From positions 327,902-391,901 of the forward strand of contig CAYZMM010000001.1 of the NCBI GenBank assembly GCA_964479535.1: DNA of 64,000 bases, in the 5' to 3' direction. Made by a program: the position numbers and the translations under genes. A model generated the notes under the pieces. It was given only the letters and a program-made list of their open reading frames with translations, searched no databases and was not told where the DNA came from. Below, one piece after another: positions 52,258-64,000 of the stretch (positions are counted from its first letter, which is position 1; each line of letters opens with the position of its first letter). This DNA comes from an uncultured Thermodesulfobacteriota bacterium (GTDB lineage Bacteria > Desulfobacterota > DSWW01).

Positions 52258-53844
52258 ATGAGCCTCCTGGACGGGTCGGTCGTCGTCGCATACCTGTCCG
52301 CCATGATCGGGCTGAGCGTCTACCTGGGCAGGTCCCAGTCCAGCGAAGTGGATTACTTCGTGGGGGGGCGCAGACTGCCGTGGTGGGCCATCGGCCTGTC
52401 GACCATGGCGACCCAGACGTCCGCCATCAGCTTCATCTCCATCCCCGCCTTTGTGGCGTTGCGACCCGGCGGAGGTCTGACCTGGCTCCAGTACGAACTC
52501 GCCGTTCCGCTCTCGGTGGCCCTGGTCATGGGCTTGTTCCTTCCCTTCTTCCGGAGGCTTCAGCTGGTGAGCGTGTACGAATACCTCGAATACCGCTTCA
52601 GCCCTTCCGTGCGAACCCTGGTCAGCCTGATCTTCCTGGTGAGCCGGGGCCTCGGCACGGGCGTCGCCGTCTATGCGAGCGCCATCGTTCTGTCCGTCTG
52701 TCTCGGCCTTCCCCTCTGGACGACCATTCTGATCATCGGCATCGTTACCCTCGTCTATGACACACTCGGCGGGATCTCGGCCGTGGTCTACTCGGACGTC
52801 ATTCAGATGGTCATCCTGGTCGCCGGCATCCTGCTCTGCCTGGTCTACGCGGTGGGCGATCTCGGGGGCATCGAGGCCGCACTGCACTCCTTGCCGAAAG
52901 AACGACTTCGCGCCATCGATGTGAGCACCGGATTGGGCGACGGTGGAGCCGTACCGCTCTGGGCCTTCCTGGTCGGCGGGTTCTTTCTCTACGCCTCCTA
53001 TTACGGCACCGACCAGAGTCAGGTCCAGCGTGAATTGTCCGCCGCTACAGCGGATGAAACGAGGCTTTCCCTGATGTTCAACGGGTTTGCCCGTTTTCCC
53101 CTCACCGTCCTTTACGCGGCCCTGGGCCTCGTCGTCGGCGCCGTCTACGGCCTCTCGCCCGAGTTGCGCGCAAACATTCCCGGGGACAGACCGGACTATT
53201 TGATTCCCCAGTTCATTCTCCTTCATCTTCCCCCGGGGATACGGGCCATTCTCTTTTCGGCCATCCTCGCCTCCGCCATGTCGAGTCTGGACTCGGCCCT
53301 GAACTCCCTCTCCGCCTCCACCCTTCGAGACTTCATCAAGCCCCGTGGGAAGGACGCCCGATCGGTCCTGATCCTCAGCAAGCTCACGACGGTCGCCTGG
53401 GGAACTGTGGTCACCGCCTTCGCCTTCCTGGTCGGCCGGATATCGCCGACCGTCATCGAATCCATCAACAAGATCGGATCCGCCTTCTTCGGGCCCATCC
53501 TCGGCGCCTTTCTGGTTGGGGTGCTGTCCGTGAAGGGCACCTCGGCCGGGGTCCTCGCCGGCATCCTTGCGGGCGTGATCCTGAACCTCGCTCTCTGGTT
53601 CCTCGTCCCGGTCGTTCACTGGATGTGGTGGAACTGTTTCGGATGCCTGACGACCGTCGGCGTGGCTCTCCTGGTCAGCACCATACACCCCTCCGCCCCA
53701 GCGAAGAGGGCGCGGCATTACGTGCTCCGCGGCACGGGTCTGCTGCGGGCAGAGCGCCGCCGGCTTCCAGCCTATCTGTCGCTGGCCGTCTACTTCCTCC
53801 TGATACTCGCCTTGCTCTCCTTCTCGGGAACCTTCAACCACTGA
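52258..53844 (+). CDS. sodium:solute symporter family (SSF) transporter
   Basis: ~13 TM segments. ATG at 52258 with GGAGGG SD (ORF track starts 52228). Confidence 0.85.
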   Translation: MSLLDGSVVVAYLSAMIGLSVYLGRSQSSEVDYFVGGRRLPWWAIGLSTMATQTSAISFISIPAFVALRPGGGLTWLQYELAVPLSVALVMGLFLPFFRRLQLVSVYEYLEYRFSPSVRTLVSLIFLVSRGLGTGVAVYASAIVLSVCLGLPLWTTILIIGIVTLVYDTLGGISAVVYSDVIQMVILVAGILLCLVYAVGDLGGIEAALHSLPKERLRAIDVSTGLGDGGAVPLWAFLVGGFFLYASYYGTDQSQVQRELSAATADETRLSLMFNGFARFPLTVLYAALGLVVGAVYGLSPELRANIPGDRPDYLIPQFILLHLPPGIRAILFSAILASAMSSLDSALNSLSASTLRDFIKPRGKDARSVLILSKLTTVAWGTVVTAFAFLVGRISPTVIESINKIGSAFFGPILGAFLVGVLSVKGTSAGVLAGILAGVILNLALWFLVPVVHWMWWNCFGCLTTVGVALLVSTIHPSAPAKRARHYVLRGTGLLRAERRRLPAYLSLAVYFLLILALLSFSGTFNH

Positions 53845-53879
53845 CGCCGGCATCAAAACCGCAAGGAAAGGAGTGTCCA

Positions 53880-56800
53880 TTGTACACGGAACAGGCCGGA
53901 GACCACGAGGGCGGTGCCCTCCGCTTCGAGGGCTTGGAAATCGGGGCCGTCTCGGTCAAGTGGGTGGGCCGGGCTTCTTCGGGAACCTCCAGCATCGAAG
54001 TGGAGCGCCATGAAGGCAACCCGCGAGAGACGACGAGGAGGATCCTCGCCCGGCAGGAGGCAGGACCGTCGTCTCGCATGGTGGTCACCGGTCAGCCCGC
54101 CAGGCTCCTCATGGACCTGCCCTACCGCCCGGAAACGGAGTGCATCGAACGGGCCCTCTCCCATCACGGCCTGAAACCGGACATGCTTCTCTCCCTCGGC
54201 GGAGAGACCTTCAGCGTCTACCCGCTGAAGGAGGGAGCCGTGAGGAACGTGATCTCCACCTCCAAGTGTGCCGCCGGTACGGGGGAGTTCATCGTCCAGC
54301 AGTTTCAACGAATGGGCATGACCCTGGAGAGAGGCCTGGCAGAGGCCCGCTCCGGAAGCCTCGTACAGATGGCGACCCGATGCTCGGTCCACTGCAAGTC
54401 GGACGCCACCCATAAGCTGAACAAGGGCGAGTGCGGTCCCGGTGATATTGCTCGATCCCTGGTGAACGATCTTGCGAAGAAGGTGAGCGAACTCGTTGAA
54501 CGGACTCAGTGGCCGGTCGGTTCGATCGTGCTCTGCGGGGGGGTCTGCAGGAACGGCCTCTTCGTGGAGCGTCTGCGAGGATTCCTGCACCGGTCGGAAG
54601 TGATCATCCTCGAGGAAAGCCCCTATCTGGAGGCCTTCGGGGCCAGCCTTTTCGCCTCCGACCCCCCCCACGACCCCTCCCCGTCCTCGCCTGCCGGACG
54701 GTTCCGAACCGCCAGGCCCACCTTCTCCAGGTTGAAACCCCTGGCCGAGGCGGAACCCCTGCTCGACTTCAGGGTGGGTTCGGGGCAACGAGACGCTGTT
54801 CAAGAAGGAGGAACGTACGTCCTCGGCATCGATGCGGGGTCGACCACCACCAAGGCCGTGCTCTTCAACCGCGACGACGGCTCCATCGGTGCGAGCGCCT
54901 ATCTTCGTACCCTCGGAAACCCGGTTCGGGCAACACGGGCGTGCCTGGAGCAGCTGATCGAAGAGGTGGGCGAGGCCTCCATCGCCATGGTTCAGGCCGG
55001 CGTGACCGGTTCGGGCAGGGAACTGGTCTCTGTCTATCTCGACAACTGTCCCAGCTTCAATGAGATCCTGGCCCACGCCCGTGCCGCTGCGGAGGAGGTC
55101 GCGGATGTGGACACCGTCTTCGAGATCGGCGGCCAGGACTCCAAGTATATTTCCTTTCTCGACGGAGTCCCGGTGGACTACGCCATGAACGAAGGGTGCT
55201 CGGCCGGCACGGGGAGCTTCGTCGAGGAGTCCGCCTCTGTGGACATGGGTGTGCCCATGGAGCAGATCAGCGACATGGCCGCGGCAAGCCTGCAACCCAT
55301 CGCCTTCGGCGAGCGATGTGCCGCCTTCATCAACACCGACTTGAGGAACGCCCTGCAACAGGGGGTGCCCCGCGAGGATGTGATCGGCGGATTGGTCTAC
55401 TCGGTTGCGGACAACTACCTCTCCCGAATCGTCGGCGGGCGCCACGTAGGCGGGAACCTCCTCTTCCTCGGTGGTGTCGCCCTGAATCGTTCCGTCGCCC
55501 TCGCCATGGCGGCCCGCACCCGGAGGAGGTTGGTCGTGCCCCCTCGCCCCGAGCTCATGGGCTGTGTCGGCGTGGCTCACATGCTCCTCGACAGGCTTCG
55601 GGAACAGGAACTGCCAGAGCGACCCATGGCGCTGGCGTCCCTCCTGCAAAGCGGGATGGAGGCGAAAGAACCGTTCCGGTGCTCATCGTGCGAGAACAGC
55701 TGTGAGATCCGGCGGATCCATGTCCGTGGCAGGACGTATCCCTTCGGAGGGCTCTGCTCCAAGTATGAAATCCTGCGACATCGGGGGACCTCCGGGGAGG
55801 ACGGCAGAGACCTGGTAGCCCTCCGCAACCGCCTGATGTTCGAGGAGTACGGACCCGATGCCGCGCATACGGGTCGAGGCACCATCGGCATCCCCATGGC
55901 CCTGACCACCTACTCTCTCTTCCCCTTCTACGTGAAGCTCATCCAGGAGCTGGGCTATGAAGCGGTTCTGTCCAGGCCGTCGAAGTCGGGCGAGACGAAG
56001 CGGACCGCCTCGATCTGCTATCCCTGCGAGATCATGCACGGCGCGGTGCATGATCTGTTCGAACGCAAAGTCGGCTACGTACTGCTTCCCCATGTGATCG
56101 AGATGGACGGACCGGAGCGATCCCTTCACGACTACACGTGCCCATCCACTACCCAGATTCCGGACATCATAAGAGCCGCTTTCGACTCGACGACGGAACG
56201 TTTGCTCGCTCCCCACATGGGCCTTTCGGAGCCCCTCAGGAACACCACGGTGAAGGAGGTCGGCAGGCTTGGCCCGAGACTCGGACTGCACGAAGCGCAG
56301 GCGCGCGAAGCGGCCGAAGTGGCGCTGGCCCATTACGACCGGTTCCGGCAGGCATGCCTCGAAGAGACGCAAGAGGCCTTGAGAGGCCTCGGAGAGGAAC
56401 CGACCGTCATCCTCGCGGGCCGGCCCTATACGATCTGTTCCTCGGAGGTGAATCTCTCCCTGCCGAGGAAGATCGCCAGCAGGGGGTACCACGTCGTCTC
56501 CGCCGACATGCTGCCCCGGCTGGACGATGCATCCCCTCCGAGAGACGTCTGGCACTTCACGCAGCAGATCAGCAACGCAGTCGCCCACGTTCGGCAGAAC
56601 CGCCATCTGTATCTTTGCCTGGTCTCATGCTTCTCCTGCGGCCCGGACAGCAGCATGTACCATTTCTTTCGCCACCGGCTTGCAGGGCGAACCTTCTGCT
56701 ATCTCGAGATCGACTCCCACACCGCTCACGCCGGCTTCGAGACACGCCTCGGGGCCTTCCTGGACCTCATCGAAGAGCAGCACCGCAGGAGTGAGCGGCC

Positions 56801-58202
56801 CTCACGAACGAAGACCTCGTCGCCCCGGGCCACGGCCCCCCCTTCTCCTCCACAGGGGAGACAGGCCCGCCTTTCGGACACCCTGGATTTCATCGTGGAC
56901 GAGCGAGGCAGCCGGGTTGAGTACGATGACCCGCGCATCGTACACGTATGGACGACCCCTCACAGCCCGTACGCGCTGCGTATGATCGAAAAGGTGTACG
57001 AGACCCGCACACCCGGCTTCCGGGGTGCGGGCAGGACGCGTCCGGAAACCATGCAATATGCGAGAAGACTCTGCTCCGGCAGGGAGTGCGTGCCCATGAC
57101 GGCCACCGCAGGGGCTGCGCTGGAAGACATGGAAACCCGTCGCGGGGAGGACGAGATCACGATCTACTTCGCCCTGGATCAGGAAGGGCCCTGTCAGAAC
57201 GGGGCCTGGCCGCTCGTGTGGGAAACCATCGGAAAGAGACTCGGCCTGGGAAACGTGATCTGCGGCGTGTGGCCTTCCGCCCGGAACAACTACCTGGGGC
57301 TCGGCAACGACTACAACCTTCTCACAAACGCATGTCTGTTCCTCGGCGACATGTTCGATGAAGCGAGGAACGCACTGGCCTGCCTCGCCCCGGACAGGGC
57401 GTCTGCCCTGCAGGTCTTCGAGGAGGCCTTCGTCACCTTCCTGAAACGCTTCGGAGAGAACGGCGACAAGGCCCTCGACCCCGCCCTGGCGGAGTGGGCC
57501 GATAGGGTGTCCCGAGTTCCCCTCAAGGCAACGCCGCAACGGACCCCGAAGGTGCTCATCCTGGGCGGGTTGAACCTGCTCTTCGTTCACGACCCGGTCA
57601 CCGACTACCTCCTGGAGCAGGGCATCCTGCCGAAACTCGTCCCCTACTCGGAAAGCCTCTGCTGGCTCGCCGCGGAAACCGTCGTGCGGCACGGCTTTCG
57701 TCACGGCCTGATCACGCCCCGGGAGCAATATTCCCACAAGCCGCCCAGGGCGAGCCGGGAAGAGGCGCTCGCCTTCCGGCAGTCGCGATTCAACGTAACC
57801 CTGGTCACTTCCGTGGAAAGGCGGTTTCGAAACGTCATGGATGCGTCCGGCCTGATGTTCGACGAGCCTGTTCCCTTTCTGGAGATCGCCGAAGGGGGGC
57901 ACCCGTACGCCTCTCACATCGGGTTTACCGAAACGACGGTCACCACCGGCCGGTTCGTCTGCTCCGTCGACAGGGGCCTCTATGACGGCCTCGTGAACCT
58001 CGGATCCTTCAACTGTCAGCCTGCCATGAACGCCCAGGCCATCATCCGTCCTCTTGCAAACAGGGCGGACATGCCCTATGTGGCCCTCGACTGTGAAGGG
58101 CCCTGGCTGTCCACCAGCCAGATCAAGCTCCTCGAGGCCCTGGTCGTCCAGGCGAGAAGGAACCACAGGAGGAAGAGCCGGCCGGCACCATCGCCCGGGT
58201 AG
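53880..58202 (+). CDS. giant fusion protein: two tandem BadF/BadG/BcrA/BcrD (HgdC-type, ASKHA) activase ATPase domains + ~800-aa C-terminal DUF2229-like region with CxxCxxxC motif
   Basis: Two copies of the motifs LGIDAGSTTTK / CAAGTGEF(SF)VE / GGQD / LGG...NR. C-terminal FRCSSCENSCEI. Likely TTG start 53880 after AAAGGAG (ORF track 53625 overlaps the symporter). Confidence 0.8.
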   Translation: MYTEQAGDHEGGALRFEGLEIGAVSVKWVGRASSGTSSIEVERHEGNPRETTRRILARQEAGPSSRMVVTGQPARLLMDLPYRPETECIERALSHHGLKPDMLLSLGGETFSVYPLKEGAVRNVISTSKCAAGTGEFIVQQFQRMGMTLERGLAEARSGSLVQMATRCSVHCKSDATHKLNKGECGPGDIARSLVNDLAKKVSELVERTQWPVGSIVLCGGVCRNGLFVERLRGFLHRSEVIILEESPYLEAFGASLFASDPPHDPSPSSPAGRFRTARPTFSRLKPLAEAEPLLDFRVGSGQRDAVQEGGTYVLGIDAGSTTTKAVLFNRDDGSIGASAYLRTLGNPVRATRACLEQLIEEVGEASIAMVQAGVTGSGRELVSVYLDNCPSFNEILAHARAAAEEVADVDTVFEIGGQDSKYISFLDGVPVDYAMNEGCSAGTGSFVEESASVDMGVPMEQISDMAAASLQPIAFGERCAAFINTDLRNALQQGVPREDVIGGLVYSVADNYLSRIVGGRHVGGNLLFLGGVALNRSVALAMAARTRRRLVVPPRPELMGCVGVAHMLLDRLREQELPERPMALASLLQSGMEAKEPFRCSSCENSCEIRRIHVRGRTYPFGGLCSKYEILRHRGTSGEDGRDLVALRNRLMFEEYGPDAAHTGRGTIGIPMALTTYSLFPFYVKLIQELGYEAVLSRPSKSGETKRTASICYPCEIMHGAVHDLFERKVGYVLLPHVIEMDGPERSLHDYTCPSTTQIPDIIRAAFDSTTERLLAPHMGLSEPLRNTTVKEVGRLGPRLGLHEAQAREAAEVALAHYDRFRQACLEETQEALRGLGEEPTVILAGRPYTICSSEVNLSLPRKIASRGYHVVSADMLPRLDDASPPRDVWHFTQQISNAVAHVRQNRHLYLCLVSCFSCGPDSSMYHFFRHRLAGRTFCYLEIDSHTAHAGFETRLGAFLDLIEEQHRRSERPSRTKTSSPRATAPPSPPQGRQARLSDTLDFIVDERGSRVEYDDPRIVHVWTTPHSPYALRMIEKVYETRTPGFRGAGRTRPETMQYARRLCSGRECVPMTATAGAALEDMETRRGEDEITIYFALDQEGPCQNGAWPLVWETIGKRLGLGNVICGVWPSARNNYLGLGNDYNLLTNACLFLGDMFDEARNALACLAPDRASALQVFEEAFVTFLKRFGENGDKALDPALAEWADRVSRVPLKATPQRTPKVLILGGLNLLFVHDPVTDYLLEQGILPKLVPYSESLCWLAAETVVRHGFRHGLITPREQYSHKPPRASREEALAFRQSRFNVTLVTSVERRFRNVMDASGLMFDEPVPFLEIAEGGHPYASHIGFTETTVTTGRFVCSVDRGLYDGLVNLGSFNCQPAMNAQAIIRPLANRADMPYVALDCEGPWLSTSQIKLLEALVVQARRNHRRKSRPAPSPG

Positions 58203-58244: not shown

Positions 58245-59369
58245 TCAGCCGGCGAGCATTTCGAGGAAGGCCTGTACCCGGGTCCCGATCTGCCCCGAGC
58301 CGGCCGTACTGTATTCACGCTCCAGATCCAGCAGGGGAATCCCCTCCTCCTGCAGTCTTCCGGTGAGCATCTGGCGCCTCCCGGCCCAGTGGTCGCAGAA
58401 CTTCAAACGGGCGCATACGACACCGTCGACCTTCCAGTCCCGAATCGTTTCCCTCATGATGTCGAAGCTCATATCGAAGCTGTTGATCACAGCCGGGCAG
58501 GGTTCCCGACTCGTGTATCGCTCGGCGATCGCTCCGAAGGGGTCCTCGCAGTCCTCCTCGATCATCCCCCTGTAGTGGCGCATTCCGAAACAGAGTCCAT
58601 CGGCCACCACGCATGCGCCCCTCTCTTCGATGAAGCGGATGAATTCCGGGACATCACAGGCACCCCCCACCACCATCAGCCTCGGCCTTCCCGCGTCAAC
58701 AGGGCGACGATTTTCCAGTTCCGGGAGAATCGCCTCGAGTCGCTCGTTGAACCGTTCCCTCGGCATGGACAACCCCGCCAGCACCATTCTCATGTGCTCC
58801 GCTCCGGTCAATGCGGGCGGATCCGACCTTCGGCTTTCGTCCAGCCGGCCGAGCAGTGCGCGCGTCCCGTTGTAGACGCGAACCGAACGTTCCAGGTCCT
58901 CCTTCCGTATTCGCACCCCCATGGAACGCTCGATCGCCTCGACGAGGCCCTTTACCTCGGAGGCGAACCACTCCTTCGCAGCGTCGCTGATGGTATGATA
59001 CATGGAGAAGTAGTGAACCAGAGGGACCTTCGCCTTGTCTTTCAACTCCCCGGCGAGCCGGAGCATGTGATCGCAGGTGTTGGTCGTCACGAACCCGTCG
59101 AGGAAATCGAGATCGCCCCGCAGGACGGCCTCCAGGACGGATCGGCTGTAAGAGCAATTGAACAGGTGCAGATGGGCATCTCCCCTGGAGGTGTCCTCGA
59201 GCCTCGGGGCCCGCACCCGCAACGGAAGCAGTCCGGCCGCATGGATGATCTCTTCGGGTATGTCCGAACAGACGGTGCCGACCACACGCCCCCCACCGCT
59301 TCTCCATGTTTCGATCTCGGCGTTGGGCAGGGTCGAGGCGATCTCCTCGAAGTATTCCAGTCCCTCCAT
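58245..59369 (-). CDS. 2-hydroxyacyl-CoA dehydratase / benzoyl-CoA reductase BcrB-BadE family subunit (HgdB-like)
   Basis: Family-typical Cys-containing regions NCSYSRS..., TNTCDHM..., ARLKFCDHWAGR. ATG 59369 (ORF-track N-terminus Ser-rich junk). Confidence 0.7.
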   Translation of the reverse strand: MEGLEYFEEIASTLPNAEIETWRSGGGRVVGTVCSDIPEEIIHAAGLLPLRVRAPRLEDTSRGDAHLHLFNCSYSRSVLEAVLRGDLDFLDGFVTTNTCDHMLRLAGELKDKAKVPLVHYFSMYHTISDAAKEWFASEVKGLVEAIERSMGVRIRKEDLERSVRVYNGTRALLGRLDESRRSDPPALTGAEHMRMVLAGLSMPRERFNERLEAILPELENRRPVDAGRPRLMVVGGACDVPEFIRFIEERGACVVADGLCFGMRHYRGMIEEDCEDPFGAIAERYTSREPCPAVINSFDMSFDIMRETIRDWKVDGVVCARLKFCDHWAGRRQMLTGRLQEEGIPLLDLEREYSTAGSGQIGTRVQAFLEMLAG

Positions 59370-59379
59370 CTTCGTCTCC

Positions 59380-60684
59380 CTATGCCATAATCGTTTCAAA
59401 GAACTCTTCGATCTGGACCCGTGCCTGCTCCGGGGAGAGCACACGGCTGTCGTTGTAATCGAACTCCAGGAAGAGGACCGGCACATCCCGCTCCCGGCAA
59501 ACTTTTTCGATCATTCCCCGTGCCCCGCAGATGCTCTGGCAGCCCACGTGCTGCGTGACGAAGAGACAATCGGCTGCATAATGGTCGTAAGCCCAGAAGA
59601 ACCACTCTATGAACGTGTCCGTTTCGATCCTTTGCAGGGACATGGTCATATCGAGACCCTGCCATGCAATCCCCTCGAGCATGCCGTCCAGGCTGGATGT
59701 GTCGATGGGCTCCAGAACGGGCGGAACGGAGAGATGGGCCACCACCATGGCACCCAGATCCTGTTCCATCCACTCGAAGATCGAGGGGTCGTAGATGGTC
59801 GGGACGTGGACCCAGAGCACCCGATGTTTCTCTTCGAAGGGCCCGCCTGTGCGGCCGTCCCTGGCCCGGGAAAGGGCATCCTCACGGAAGGTGGTGAGCA
59901 CCTCGGTGACCCGTGGGCTCCCAGCCGCCTGAATGTATCGCATGAACGGCATCATTCTCAGATAGGCGGAATAGGGCATCGGCCGGAGTCGATACGTCTC
60001 ATTGATATCCAGCATGCACTCGAAGGCCCTGTTCGACTCTTCGACCGTCTCTCTCAAACGGTCGATGTCGAACCTCCTTCCCGTCGCCTCCTCCAGAAAG
60101 GGAATGAGCTGGTCTCTGAGTTGCCCGGCGTAGTACCGGACCGCATCCCTGCCGTGCCGGAAGGGGGCGTCGAGAAAGATCGCGGGGCACTCGAGAATCT
60201 CCTTCATGATCGGGTAGGCGATGCGGGTCCCGTCACAGGGGCAGGAGGATGTGGCGAAGAGTGAGTTGTTCGGAAGCTCATCGCTCAGCGCCGCCCCGAC
60301 CAGGAAGCGATCCGTGGAACAGACTTCCGGCGGAAGGCCCGCCTCTTCCGCGCTCTCCAGGAAGGCGTGCACAACGCTCTGGTCGAGGCCGGAAAAGAAG
60401 GTGGGGTAGAACTCGAGCGACAGGGGCTTGCAGCCGAAGGCGTAGAAGATCTGGGGCATCAGGCCGAACTGGATCATCGCGACCTTTCCGCTCTCATCCA
60501 CCATGGCCGCGGCCACCTCTTCGTAGTGGACCACCATGTCGTTCAGCATCAACCAGACGAGATCGCCGTAGGGCGCGAGCGCCGGGGGGGGATTCCTCTT
60601 CATTTCCTCGGCCAGCAGGGACAGGCCGTTCGTTACGTTCATGGTTCGTTCAAAGGGTGTTCCCATTTCGACATGCTCCCTCAT
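59380..60684 (-). CDS. 2-hydroxyacyl-CoA dehydratase family subunit (HgdA/BcrC-like)
   Basis: 434 aa; conserved Cys in ...TSSCPCDG..., ...HVGCQSICG...; adjacent to HgdB-like gene. Confidence 0.7.
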   Translation of the reverse strand: MREHVEMGTPFERTMNVTNGLSLLAEEMKRNPPPALAPYGDLVWLMLNDMVVHYEEVAAAMVDESGKVAMIQFGLMPQIFYAFGCKPLSLEFYPTFFSGLDQSVVHAFLESAEEAGLPPEVCSTDRFLVGAALSDELPNNSLFATSSCPCDGTRIAYPIMKEILECPAIFLDAPFRHGRDAVRYYAGQLRDQLIPFLEEATGRRFDIDRLRETVEESNRAFECMLDINETYRLRPMPYSAYLRMMPFMRYIQAAGSPRVTEVLTTFREDALSRARDGRTGGPFEEKHRVLWVHVPTIYDPSIFEWMEQDLGAMVVAHLSVPPVLEPIDTSSLDGMLEGIAWQGLDMTMSLQRIETDTFIEWFFWAYDHYAADCLFVTQHVGCQSICGARGMIEKVCRERDVPVLFLEFDYNDSRVLSPEQARVQIEEFFETIMA

Positions 60685-60780
60685 ATCATCCGTTCATTCT
60701 CCTCTTTCCGACCGCCTGTGTGCATCTCCTTCAGGGCCACGATTTCGGCAGCCCCTGAAACTGCATGAGCATGTTGCGGC

Positions 60781-62160
60781 TCATCTCGTTCGAGATGGGC
60801 GAGAACTGGATCTGCATGGCATCGCGGAGGCACCTCTGCATGGCGTACTCGTTGCAGATGCCGTATCCGCCCGGAATCTCGTCCCCGTGTGTGGTGGCGT
60901 GCAAGCGTCGAAACGGATGTGAGCGATGCCCTTCAGGGGAATGCGGAAGGAACCGAAAGGTGCCTGACCCGACAGGGTCGTCTCTCCGTCCACAAGAACA
61001 TCCACCGCCCCGCCGCCCGACAGCCTGGCGGTGGCCACGAACCGGCCGTCCTTCTGCGAAACCTCCATCCCGCTCACGCAGGCGAGTTCCACCTCCGCCC
61101 ACCCCTCTCCGACCCTGCCTGTCAGATGCGGAAGGCCCTCGATCCGGATATGCTTGATTCGAACCGTTACGCCCCGGTTGTCCCGGAGGAATCCGGAAGG
61201 GCCCTCCACCTCCCCCGATCCCGTGGCACACGGTTCGGCCCGCCTGAGCCCGGAACCGAACATCTCGGTCAGTGTCTTCATCCCCTCGTCGACCGAGCAT
61301 GACGGGTCCATCAACCGCCAGTAACCGATCCCCTCGGCCATGACCAGCTCGAGGTAGGCGAGAAGGTCGACATTCACGTCCGGCTTGACCACCCCCTCCG
61401 CGATGGCCCGTCTCAGGTCTCTCGCCATGGGGGCGGCCAGCGTTCGGAAGGCCTCCCCCCCCTTCTGCGCCATCGCGGGGTCGCGCCCCCCCAGGGCGGC
61501 ACGGAGCAGGTTCAGAATCCCGCGGAAGCCCGGAAAGGCGTTCAAGAAGGCGATGCCCCGTTTCCGAGTCCTTTCGTCGAAGTCCTTTTCGCTTCGTATC
61601 TCCGCCCAGGCCTCCTTCGGCACCATCGTGACCGTGAGCCGATCGATGCACTCCATGAACAGTTCCTTCTTGTTCTTGAAGTAGACGTAGAAGGTGCCCT
61701 TCCCCATGTGGAGGGCCTCCGTGATGTCGCTGATCTTCGTTCTCTCGTACCCCCTTTCGGAGAAGAGCTCGATTGCGGCATCCAGGATCGTCTCCCGGTT
61801 CCTGTGCCCTTGAGGGCTCGTACCGCTCCGCTCCCCCCGATGGGCGGACGACCCCGGGCCCGGAGAGACGGCACGGCCGTCCACACTGCGCTCGCAGGCT
61901 TCCTTTGGTTCAACACGATCCAGGAGTTCCCTGATGCGCGCCAGGGGAAACCCTTCTTTTTCGCGCAGCCGGCGGATCTTTCGGAGCCGGTTCAAGTGGC
62001 TCTCGTCAAACAGGTGGACGTTCAACCCCACCTGTCGGGGGCGGTGAAGCAACCCTATGTTCACGTAATGGTGAATGGTCGAGCGGGTGAGCCCCGACGC
62101 CTTCGAGAGCTGCGCGATCTTCATCCCCGGTGGAACAGGCAGCTGCTCGGCAGGTGTCAT
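60781..62160 (-). CDS. fusion transcriptional regulator: MerR-type HTH + TetR-family domain + ~110-aa C-terminal domain of unknown function
   Basis: MKIAQLSKASGLTRSTIHHYVNIGLL (MerR HTH); RETILDAAIELFSERGYERTKISDITEALHMGKGTFYVYFKNKKELF (TetR HTH) + TetR ligand domain. Start 62160 or 62124. Confidence 0.7.
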   Translation of the reverse strand: MTPAEQLPVPPGMKIAQLSKASGLTRSTIHHYVNIGLLHRPRQVGLNVHLFDESHLNRLRKIRRLREKEGFPLARIRELLDRVEPKEACERSVDGRAVSPGPGSSAHRGERSGTSPQGHRNRETILDAAIELFSERGYERTKISDITEALHMGKGTFYVYFKNKKELFMECIDRLTVTMVPKEAWAEIRSEKDFDERTRKRGIAFLNAFPGFRGILNLLRAALGGRDPAMAQKGGEAFRTLAAPMARDLRRAIAEGVVKPDVNVDLLAYLELVMAEGIGYWRLMDPSCSVDEGMKTLTEMFGSGLRRAEPCATGSGEVEGPSGFLRDNRGVTVRIKHIRIEGLPHLTGRVGEGWAEVELACVSGMEVSQKDGRFVATARLSGGGAVDVLVDGETTLSGQAPFGSFRIPLKGIAHIRFDACTPPHTGTRFRADTASATSTPCRGASAMPCRSSSRPSRTR

Positions 62161-62220
62161 CCCGGATCCCTTCCCCGCATTATATGTTGCATGATAATAC
62201 TGACGAGTCGGCACCTGAAA

Positions 62221-62250
62221 AGCATAGATTGCCCAGCCCGGCATGTCAAG
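62221..62250 (-). promoter_or_regulatory. sigma-70-type promoter TTGACA-N18-TATGCT for the MerR-TetR gene
   Basis: Revcomp of 62221..62250; 18-nt spacer; in AT-rich 62160-62330 region. Confidence 0.4.
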
Positions 62251-62448
62251 AAAAAAGCCAAGAAGCCTGAAGATGCGACAATATTCTTCCAATAGTATGT
62301 TTTTAAACGTTTTTTACGGCATGGTCGTTGCGAGGCGACTTCCCGGGTTATGGCAATTTGTTAGACGATAATACCCATTGGTCGGTTATTGCCGAGGAGA
62401 ACAGACGAGACGCTTATCCATTCGACGTCGAGTTGCAGCGACGCTGGG

Positions 62449-64000
62449 TCACGCAAGCTCCCGTTTCAGCAGGCCCAGGGCCACGAGGAAGAACACCCAG
62501 GGCGCAAGGAATGCGAAGAGGCCTCGAACGGGCCCCTGTACGGGGATCGTGCCGCAATTGTCCTGGCCGTTCCCATTGCTGTCGATGTCATCATCGTCCC
62601 ATTCCGCGGAACCGCCGTCGAAACCGTCACAGTCCCAGTCCGTTTCGTCGTCAAAGGGGTCGCCCGCGCCCGGATGAACGAGGGGGTCCTGGTCATCACA
62701 GTCGTGTGTGCGCATCACGCCGTCCCCGTCCTCGTCCTGGCAATCGTCCCCCACGCCGTCCAGATCTTCATCGACCTGTGCGGTGTTCGCGTGCCGGGGA
62801 CAGTTGTCGGATTCGTCCGCCACCCCGTCCCCGTCCGTGTCGCCCTCTGCGGGCGGTCCCATGGAATAGAGTCTTCCGCCCAGGGGGCCCAGATCTCCGA
62901 CAGCCACGAAACGATCGCGGTAGACGATCGGGGCGGCGACGGCACGGTGCCGCTCGCCGAAGCCGGCCTCGTTCACGCGGCTCCACCGGTCCTCGTGGAG
63001 TCTCCAGACCTCGCCTCCCGTGAAGGGGTTGGTCGTACAGATGTACAGGTCTTCCTCGTAGACGACCCCGGAATGATACGTAACCGCCTGTGTGTTGCGC
63101 ATCGGAATGCCTGCGAAAAGGACCGGTCCCCAGACCGCTCCGTCGTAACGCCACAACTCCGCGCCCGTGTACACGTTCTCTGTGCCCACATAGAGAAAGC
63201 CGCCGTGGGAGATCATCATCAGGGCGTTTCGATTGAAGACGTTCGACGCCCCCAGCCCGAAGCCGTCCGCGTTGACCTGTCTCCACGAGGATTTCATGCG
63301 GGAGAGAGGGGCCCCCTCCGAGCGCCAGATCTCGGTCCCGGTTCCTACCCGCAGGGTATCGTAGAAGTAACCGTTTTCGGTGCCCACGTAGAGGGCTCCC
63401 TCGTGGACGGCCATGGTCGTCGCGTCGGAATTGAACAGATCCAGGAACCCGACCGGGCTGACCCTGGACCAGGTGTATCCGTCGGCGCTTCTCCAGACCC
63501 CGCAGGGCGGATTGAGGATCGGAACGCCCTGTGTGAAGACGCCCGCGTACAGCTCATCCTCGAAGGTCGTCATCGATGTAACGGCAAACCCGTGAAAGGA
63601 GTTCTCGTCCACCCTTTCCCAGTCCTCGAGGACCAGCGGGTGCTCTGCCTCCCGGCGTGTCCTCCAGAGTTGCGCCCCTGTGTGGCGGTTCCAGGTGCCC
63701 ACGTAGAGCCGATCCTGAAACACATGCATGCCTGCAACGCTGAAATTCTGCCACCCGAGACCGTCACCGGTCTCGTATCCCGTGGGGCACGCCTCGTGCC
63801 ACTTCCAAACCCCGTCCTCCTCCTGGATGCACAGCACCTGAAGCCCGCCCGGCACCGGTGGCTCCGCCTCCAGGTTGCGCACCCGCTGGGTCCCCGCATA
63901 CAGGCGCCCGTGATACTCGACCATGGAGACGACGAGGAACTTCTCCTTTTCCCACGCTTCTCCCATGTGGATCGGATCGAATCCCGCATTCGCCTGGTCG
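62449..64000 (-). CDS. beta-propeller repeat protein with thrombospondin type 3 (Ca-binding) repeats and C-terminal hydrophobic anchor/sorting signal; N-terminus beyond window
   Basis: Six repeats with (R/E)LY(V/A)GT...W..(D/E)G..W core; DTDGDGVADESDNCPRHANTAQVDEDLDGVGDDCQDEDGDGV TSP3 repeats; C-terminus NCGTIPVQGPVRGLFAFLAPWVFFLVALGLLKRELA. Frame open to 64000. Confidence 0.7.
   Translation of the reverse strand, partial: DQANAGFDPIHMGEAWEKEKFLVVSMVEYHGRLYAGTQRVRNLEAEPPVPGGLQVLCIQEEDGVWKWHEACPTGYETGDGLGWQNFSVAGMHVFQDRLYVGTWNRHTGAQLWRTRREAEHPLVLEDWERVDENSFHGFAVTSMTTFEDELYAGVFTQGVPILNPPCGVWRSADGYTWSRVSPVGFLDLFNSDATTMAVHEGALYVGTENGYFYDTLRVGTGTEIWRSEGAPLSRMKSSWRQVNADGFGLGASNVFNRNALMMISHGGFLYVGTENVYTGAELWRYDGAVWGPVLFAGIPMRNTQAVTYHSGVVYEEDLYICTTNPFTGGEVWRLHEDRWSRVNEAGFGERHRAVAAPIVYRDRFVAVGDLGPLGGRLYSMGPPAEGDTDGDGVADESDNCPRHANTAQVDEDLDGVGDDCQDEDGDGVMRTHDCDDQDPLVHPGAGDPFDDETDWDCDGFDGGSAEWDDDDIDSNGNGQDNCGTIPVQGPVRGLFAFLAPWVFFLVALGLLKRELA

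Follow-up and report, generated by a model that had tools for sequence, protein, structure and literature searches.

We analysed a window of 64,000 nucleotides from an uncultured Thermodesulfobacteriota bacterium (assembly GCA_964479535.1, contig CAYZMM010000001.1, positions 327,902 to 391,901) and concentrated on one gene of its minus strand, which encodes a putative transcriptional regulator with helix-turn-helix (HTH) domains of two different classes. The protein has a MerR-type winged helix (residues 13-82), a TetR fold (116-308) and an all-beta domain (323-419), and this three-domain fusion is conserved across a family of bacterial proteins. We propose, with a probability of about 60%, that the regulator is a TetR-type repressor which controls its own gene, is released by a ligand and has gained two additional modules. 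Most likely it shuts off its own operon for acyl-coenzyme A (acyl-CoA) metabolism, most of which has been deleted in this genome. The coordinates of all features, given as positions in the window, are collected in table 1.

The three-domain fusion is a conserved family

The regulator is encoded by a single unbroken open reading frame (ORF), which ends at 60781. A sequence-only reading of this region had proposed that two HTH classes coexist in one polypeptide. The Pfam scan bears this out, since the ORF matches both PF13411 (MerR_1, residues 13-81, 64 bits for a cut-off of 21.6) and PF00440 (TetR_N, residues 125-170, 69 bits for a cut-off of 24). The same reading had raised the concern that a frameshift or a sequencing error might have merged two genes, and two independent observations dispel it. 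A search with the regulator among 5.8 billion proteins retrieved 87 clusters of homologues, mostly from Desulfobacterota-like anaerobes. In 85 of these clusters, MerR_1 and TetR_N occur together in a single chain of 380-435 amino acids (aa) that covers 88-93% of the query. A contig from a separate assembly (L001, SRA run SRR7048227) is 100% identical to positions 59902-62693 of the window, i.e. over 2792 bp that include the entire gene and both deletion junctions described below. Hence, the fusion is a conserved family and not the result of a frameshift or of an assembly accident.

The start codon at ATG 62160 agrees with the N-termini of the homologues and with a conserved GGAAGG Shine-Dalgarno sequence. 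We rejected TTG 62292 as a start, as this codon precedes the conserved promoter and would add 44 N-terminal residues that are not conserved. The AlphaFold2 model of the regulator, made from an alignment of 25 sequences, has a MerR winged helix, a disordered stretch (84-114), a TetR fold (116-305), a short linker, a ten-strand beta-domain (321-418) and a disordered tail (420-459). Across the family, the mean pairwise identity is 57% in the MerR HTH module, 66% in the TetR HTH module, 52% in the TetR C-domain and 37% in the beta-domain, whereas it is only 13-14% in the two inter-domain linkers, whose lengths range from 8 to 33 and from 6 to 14 aa. This difference suggests that selection acts on all three folded modules.

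Some proteins carry the two heads and lack the beta-domain. These MerR+TetR proteins of approximately 320-330 aa were found in metagenome-assembled genomes (MAGs) of Desulfobacterales, Desulfatitalea and Smithella (L011-L016) and in P0086 and P0087, showing that the two-head fusion exists independently of the third module. When contigs were scanned with the full-length alignment of the regulator, most matches were to generic TetR proteins, and the relevant loci were L010-L016 only. One MAG, PL23a_bin.76, encodes two paralogues of the regulator (L010 and L002, on JANQFG010000055 and JANQFG010000109), which both have the three domains and share 65% and 48% identity with the protein of the window. 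The family has thus diversified within genomes, presumably to control different operons. A literature search for MerR-TetR hybrids returned no experimental study or description. We class the regulator as an uncharacterised subfamily of TetR regulators that carries two accessory modules, and its core logic is probably that of ordinary repression.

The core is a complete TetR module

The central part of the regulator has both the sequence and the fold features of the TetR family, i.e. a TetR_N HTH and an all-helical C-terminal domain. Beyond the HTH, the Pfam matches are weak (TetR_C at residues 222-277) and nothing is assigned past residue 300 or so, while the TetR-type models of NCBIfam match from about residue 115 on. 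The TetR part of the AlphaFold2 model (116-305) is a complete fold of 9-10 helices. A Foldseek search with the whole model returned TetR structures only, with template modelling (TM) scores (TMt) of 0.69-0.77 over 185-200 columns, and Bacillus FadR, Thermus PfmR and a fatty-acid regulator of Clostridium were among the best matches. When the family profile was compared with the sequences of the PDB, residues 113-309 aligned end to end with FadR/YsiA of B. subtilis (1vi0, 3whb) and with PfmR of T. thermophilus (3vpr), with E values from 7e-17 to 1e-15. These proteins (and 3whc, also FadR/YsiA) are the best profile and fold matches of the module in the PDB. The regulator is a relative of FadR and not a member of its equivalog family, scoring 41.4 bits against NF053878 for an NCBIfam cut-off of 200 bits.

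Like FadR and PfmR, the regulator sits first in, or beside, groups of acyl-CoA dehydrogenase (ACAD), thiolase and hydratase genes, and by analogy its expected logic is that of a repressor released by a CoA thioester. Those proteins have approximately 190 aa and a single domain type, whereas the regulator is extended by a MerR head at its N-terminus and by a beta-domain at its C-terminus. Its predicted operator also differs: it is an asymmetric site of around 30 bp, whereas FadR and PfmR bind a short palindrome.

The MerR-type head lacks the coiled coil

The N-terminal head is homologous to the winged helix of approximately 70 aa found at the N-terminus of the canonical MerR family (MerR, CueR, CadR, BmrR, TipAL). 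It is also matched by PF00376 (29.4 bits for a cut-off of 28.2), and its best match in the PDB is 2dg6. The module ends after helix 4, and the coiled-coil helix 5 is absent. The NCBIfam models of metal-sensing MerR proteins match the regulator at residues 13-90 only, those of CueR, MerR and CadR are matched over the first 75 or so of their roughly 125 positions, and the match to PF09278 covers positions 1-32 of the 65 in the profile. In the AlphaFold2 model, the helices of the head span residues 15-22, 26-34, 53-67 and 73-82 and are followed by disorder. To our knowledge, the long helix 5 is the antiparallel coiled-coil dimer interface of every canonical MerR protein and sets the geometry of the two heads. 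The regulator thus has the winged HTH of the MerR family and fails two of the three defining features that we tested: it lacks the helix 5 coiled coil with the contiguous effector domain, and its own promoter lacks the spacer of 19-20 bp with the operator inside, although the regulator might also act at other promoters.

Heads of this type have precedents. In CarH/LitR and in BldC, a MerR-type winged helix without the MerR coiled coil serves simply to bind DNA, either to repress or to bind cooperatively, and oligomerisation is provided by another domain or by DNA-templated contacts. In CarH the head is joined to a light sensor that binds B12, whereas BldC consists of the head alone. The regulator shares the coil-less head with these proteins, but only the regulator has a second unrelated HTH. 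There are also precedents for four TetR-type heads on a long operator: Mce3R (PDB 9b7y, among our PDB matches) has two TetR modules in one chain, and two dimers of QacR occupy an operator of 28 bp. The extra heads of Mce3R and QacR are of the TetR type, whereas that of the regulator comes from a different superfamily.

A conserved promoter and two predicted operator sites

The region upstream of the gene is AT-rich (GC of 0.42 in the promoter gap and approximately 0.63 in the flanks) and contains a strong predicted sigma-70-type promoter. Both points had been made in the sequence-only reading, which nevertheless counted 18 bp in the spacer instead of 17 bp. Across six orthologous upstream regions, the -35 element CTTGACA, the TA...T of the -10 element and the GAAGG of the Shine-Dalgarno sequence are invariant, while the remaining DNA has diverged. 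The pattern TTGACA-N17-TAnnnT is likewise found in more distant loci.

The orthologues have another conserved element, aACCGACy-N5-GTAy-N5-T-N-CAA, 6-9 nt past the -10 box. Its blocks CCGAC, GTA and T.CAA are invariant in 10 operator-like sites from 6 loci. A pattern search found exactly two copies of this motif in the window, where 0.02 are expected by chance, and 12 occurrences in 110 fetched loci, all 12 upstream of these regulator genes. The second (distal) copy lies 174-179 bp upstream of the first, in the same orientation, in all six distinct close orthologous loci. In an unbiased self-match scan, the best internal match to the proximal site fell 167-179 bp farther upstream at 14 of the 20 loci scanned, and this spacing also holds in distant clades where the core of the site has changed to sequences resembling (G/A)TAC-N6-GT(A/T/C)C. 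A scan of the leader with Rfam gave no match of any weight, and we regard an RNA element there as improbable.

A strong consensus promoter whose conserved site covers +1 to +30 is a textbook arrangement for repression. In MerR promoters, the spacer has 19-20 bp and contains the operator. The 17-bp spacer and the conserved site past the -10 box therefore point to repression in the manner of TetR rather than to promoter twisting in the manner of MerR. Together with the missing helix 5, they speak against the MerR-style mechanism that the sequence-only reading had implied.

At two other loci (L091 and L092), a divergent ORF of 634 aa lies upstream of the regulator and the distal operator-like site is approximately 75 nt before its likely start. 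From this arrangement, the distal site could also control a divergent promoter in some genomes.

The C-terminal domain belongs to a widespread unnamed family

The last 110 residues or so had been described as matching no recognised family. It is true that no Pfam or NCBIfam model matches this region, but its conserved part is a domain of around 100 aa (323-419), and the final 40 aa of the protein result from read-through. The domain also has no match among PDB sequence profiles. Its structure is predicted with high confidence: the predicted local distance difference test (pLDDT) score is 96.9 when the domain is modelled alone with 46 sequences, and above 90 within the full-length model. The domain contains an internal repeat, as its two halves can be aligned with hhalign (Prob 92.6%, E 4.5e-7). 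Its roughly 100 aa form two homologous units of five strands each, with the pattern D-x2-G...L-x-G-x2-G...(I/V)-P-(L/F)-x2-(I/V).

The sole notable fold match is TagJ/HsiE1 (ImpE) of type VI secretion (4uqy_A), which is the only solved structure with a similar fold. The match is borderline (E 4.6e-3, TMq 0.72) and sequence similarity is undetectable (13% identity). TagJ is a protein-protein adaptor (PMC13584744). TagJ also contains other regions, and the process in which it acts is unrelated. We also considered other identities for the domain and rejected them: PilZ was absent among the fold matches listed, and the TM scores for LytTR and Tudor were merely 0.26-0.31.

An exhaustive search with a hidden Markov model of the domain found 492 representatives (at 50% identity) at E<=1e-3, of which 223 at E<=1e-10. 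Outside the regulators, the domain occurs in many proteins of approximately 140 aa, in which an N-terminal helix resembles a signal peptide and the N-terminus ends in a GMG motif, and in giant proteins where the unit is repeated up to 14 times; every one of them carries the annotation 'hypothetical' (P0160, P0167, P0180, P0225, P0091, P0096 and P0201 are examples of proteins with the domain). The true stand-alone homologues were recovered by the exhaustive search only, while two candidates from a word-indexed search (P0088 and P0089) were in fact truncated pieces of proteins from the regulator family. The genes of the stand-alone proteins lie on short contigs or have no recurring neighbours. 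The beta-domain is, in sum, a widespread unnamed family.

Two deletions removed most of the operon

The closest relatives (L002 and L004) have the gene order TSP_3 protein, regulator, Oxidored_FMN protein of 454 aa, Thiolase_C_1 protein, ChsH2-like OB protein, ACAD, Amidohydro_2 protein and two HGD-D proteins (similar to 2-hydroxyacyl-CoA dehydratases and benzoyl-CoA reductases), followed by a BcrAD_BadFG/DUF2229 activator gene on the opposite strand. Relative to this full operon, five genes and approximately 5 kb have been lost from the window in two deletions, and the ACAD and amidohydrolase genes survive only as 3' remnants. When the proteins of L002 and L004 were searched in the window with tblastn, the ACADs matched only with residues 333-389 (60904..60734, 91% and 89% identity), and nothing was found for the flavin reductase, the thiolase, the ChsH2-like protein, the amidohydrolase or the first 332 residues of the ACAD. 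The first deletion extends from the natural 3' end of the regulator gene to codon 332 of the ACAD, and its junction has a CG(C/T)TT microhomology when compared with L002. It removed the natural stop codon, so that the ORF was extended by 40 codons through the ACAD remnant. Comparison of the reading frames identifies residues 420-459 as an out-of-frame reading of this remnant that is unique to the window, and no homologue aligns with the regulator past residue 419. The second deletion removed the amidohydrolase gene.

As a consequence of this loss, the regulator abuts the HGD-D genes only through decay of the operon. The HgdA-like gene had been described as adjacent to the regulator, which it is, and as divergent from it, which it is not: the first HGD-D gene lies directly downstream on the same strand. 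No minus-strand promoter or terminator was predicted between the two genes, and they are probably co-transcribed. The start of the first HGD-D gene is most likely ATG 60666, which gives the N-terminus MGTPFE... seen in L002 and L004, rather than 60684, the start given in the ORF list.

In the relatives, the regulator is the leading gene of an operon transcribed in one direction, and the next gene follows after 67-136 nt or overlaps it slightly. More distant members of the family have flavin reductase, amidohydrolase, thiolase, ChsH2-ECH and ACAD genes downstream, and their operon ends with a CoA ligase instead of HGD-D genes. Others adjoin ACAD, enoate-reductase and thiolase genes. HGD-D genes are therefore present in some relatives only, whereas the beta-oxidation-like set of flavin reductase, amidohydrolase, thiolase and ACAD is conserved. 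The common theme of these neighbourhoods is acyl-CoA metabolism and not the dehydratase. The sequence-only reading had made the protein the ligand-responsive regulator of the dehydratase locus. That it regulates neighbouring catabolic genes in response to a ligand is plausible, but the link with the dehydratase is only half right, as the genes conserved beside it point away from the dehydratase.

Several other genes of these neighbourhoods were noted. Upstream of the regulator, the window encodes a protein of 505 aa (62449-63966, minus) with a thrombospondin type-3 repeat and a metal-binding motif of the MopE type. Synteny of this gene with the regulator is kept in L002, L003 and L004, and it is approximately 80% identical to L002 at the nucleotide level. 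Downstream, a putative activase gene of the BcrAD_BadFG/DUF2229 type (53625-58202, plus, up to 1525 aa) is convergent with the HGD-D pair, and its start at GTG 53625 is probably too far upstream. Its equivalent in L002 has 1441 aa and is also convergent, while in L004 it is split into genes of 1031 and 410 aa. In L005, L006 and L007, genes for DUF1329, DUF1302 and FAD_binding_3 proteins are divergent from the regulator, and L005 and L006 have an additional divergent molybdopterin oxidoreductase with an AhtL-like domain. The divergent genes of this clade hint at a pathway that handles a hydrophobic substrate.

Table 1. Features of the regulator locus and their positions in the window.
Feature	Residues	Position	Strand	Basis or remarks
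Regulator gene		62160..60781	minus	459 aa, read from ATG 62160
MerR-type winged helix-turn-helix, helices 1-4 and wing	13-82	61915..62124	minus	PF13411 1.2e-17; family identity 57%
Linker 1, disordered	83-115	61816..61914	minus	pLDDT 31-43; family identity 14%; length 8-33 aa
Complete TetR module (HTH 125-170 and helical ligand/dimerisation domain)	116-308	61237..61815	minus	PF00440 2.9e-19; Foldseek; profile alignment
C-terminal all-beta domain, two homologous five-strand halves	323-419	60904..61194	minus	AlphaFold2 pLDDT 96.9; hhalign
Non-conserved 40-aa tail and stop codon	420-459	60781..60903	minus	no homologue aligned; pLDDT <50
Shine-Dalgarno sequence GGAAGGG		62168..62174	minus	direct sequence reading; GAAGG in same position in orthologues
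Sigma-70-type promoter TTGACA-N17-TATGCT		62221..62249	minus	10/12 matches; predicted
Proximal operator-like site CCGACTCGTCAGTATTATCATGCAA		62187..62211	minus	9 nt past -10 hexamer; covers roughly +1 to +30
Distal operator-like site CCGACCAATGGGTATTATCGTCTAA		62361..62385	minus	174 bp upstream of proximal site, same orientation
ACAD remnant, last 57 codons and stop		60731..60904	minus	tblastn; other frame than regulator
Amidohydro_2 3'-end remnant, approximately last 24 nt including stop		60686..60709	minus	local alignment to end of L002 amidohydrolase gene and following intergenic DNA, before HGD-D
First HGD-D gene (2-hydroxyacyl-CoA dehydratase/benzoyl-CoA reductase-like)		59380..60666	minus	PF06050 1.3e-55; 83-85% aa identity, full length, to L002/L004
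Second HGD-D gene		58245..59369	minus	PF06050 4.2e-88; 76-77% identity, full length, to L002/L004

Proposed mechanism and alternatives

We propose that the protein dimerises through its TetR core, as expected from what is known of the TetR family, and that its binding at the predicted proximal and distal sites would block transcription of its own gene and of the operon that follows. A CoA thioester from the pathway encoded by the operon would enter the TetR pocket and release the DNA. This class of ligand is suggested by the resemblance of the TetR part to the acyl-CoA-binding FadR and PfmR and by the acyl-CoA enzymes encoded nearby. The MerR head, on a flexible linker and without its coiled coil, would most likely be a second DNA-reading head that extends or strengthens the recognition of an unusually long asymmetric operator, much as in CarH or BldC, and is unlikely to be a promoter-twisting activator. 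For the beta-domain, we favour as a guess a protein-protein contact between the dimers at the two sites, or the binding of a second ligand. That it bridges the two sites is a speculation drawn from their fixed pairing at approximately 175 bp and from the adaptor-like fold. In this genome, following the deletions, the regulator and its promoter now stand directly in front of the two HGD-D genes.

Some points weigh against this mechanism. The operators are assigned purely by the comparison of sequences, and the palindromic symmetry of the site is weak (core AC-N6-GT), an unusual trait for the target of a TetR dimer. The acyl-CoA ligand is proposed by analogy, given that the FadR model scores 41 bits where 200 are demanded. 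The conserved element is itself transcribed and might conceivably act as RNA, although its dyad is too short for a stable hairpin. Finally, the junk tail of 40 aa could impair the protein in this genome.

The two heads could instead divide the labour. The TetR heads would bind one operator and the tethered MerR heads another sequence, e.g. the distal site or flanking blocks, such that a dimer or tetramer bridges approximately 175 bp and loops the promoter, with the beta-domain aiding oligomerisation. This would account for the spacing of 167-179 bp kept in 14 of 20 loci across clades whose sites have diverged in sequence, it would make use of flexible linkers of 8-33 aa, and the only fold match of the beta-domain is a protein-interaction adaptor (TagJ; PMC13584744). 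Yet that match is borderline (E 4.6e-3), and the distal and proximal sites have the same pattern and orientation, which is better explained by two identical complexes. We regard this alternative as possible but rather doubtful. The same tentative standing applies to a bolder proposal, that these proteins are a distinct class of one-component regulators in which the TetR HTH and the coil-less MerR head of one dimer jointly read a composite asymmetric operator of approximately 30 bp, while the tandem beta-domain, not described before, links complexes around 175 bp apart and thereby loops a strong promoter. If this joint reading and looping were true, control would depend both on the CoA-thioester ligand and on the geometry of the DNA.

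It is less likely that the regulator is a relic, decaying and non-functional after the operon was gutted, with its odd tail as the sign of a pseudogene in the making. The loss of five downstream genes and of the natural stop, which added 40 unrelated residues, speaks for such a relic. However, the three domains, the promoter, both operator-like sites and the Shine-Dalgarno sequence are all intact, and the downstream HGD-D genes are full length. The alignment of homologues reveals no excess of non-synonymous changes at the positions that are invariant in the family, and the family as a whole is clearly functional.

We consider it very improbable that the protein is an activator of the MerR type, in which the MerR head would sit between the -35 and -10 elements of a sub-optimal promoter and untwist it upon binding of a ligand sensed by the TetR part. 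The MerR_1 domain is genuine and well conserved, but it is deprived of its coiled-coil helix 5, the promoter of the gene has an optimal spacer of 17 bp and a consensus -35 element, and the conserved site is downstream of the -10 element rather than in the spacer. Beyond the two copies upstream of the regulator, the 64 kb of the window contain no further copy of the motif at which such an activator might act. Lastly, the probability that two or three separate genes were merged by an artefact of assembly or by a frameshift is negligible. One could invoke for it only general caution about a window that is probably metagenome-assembled, whereas the 87 clusters of homologues come from many samples, 85 of them have both domains in one ORF, and the separate assembly is identical over the whole gene.

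Significance

For the window itself the lesson is modest: the presence of this regulator beside dehydratase-like genes is a by-product of operon decay, and its operon is largely gone. The interest of the family is broader, as it is uncommon for a regulator to combine two different DNA-binding folds in a single chain. It marks an uncharacterised anaerobic acyl-CoA pathway with flavin reductase, amidohydrolase, BbsAB-like thiolase, ACAD and HGD-D enzymes. It is also suited to direct tests, because it offers a sharply defined predicted promoter, a paired putative operator at fixed spacing and a probable class of ligands. Such a regulator would reveal how a MerR head without its coil works together with a TetR head, and would offer a first access to the function of a widespread beta-domain for which Pfam has no family.

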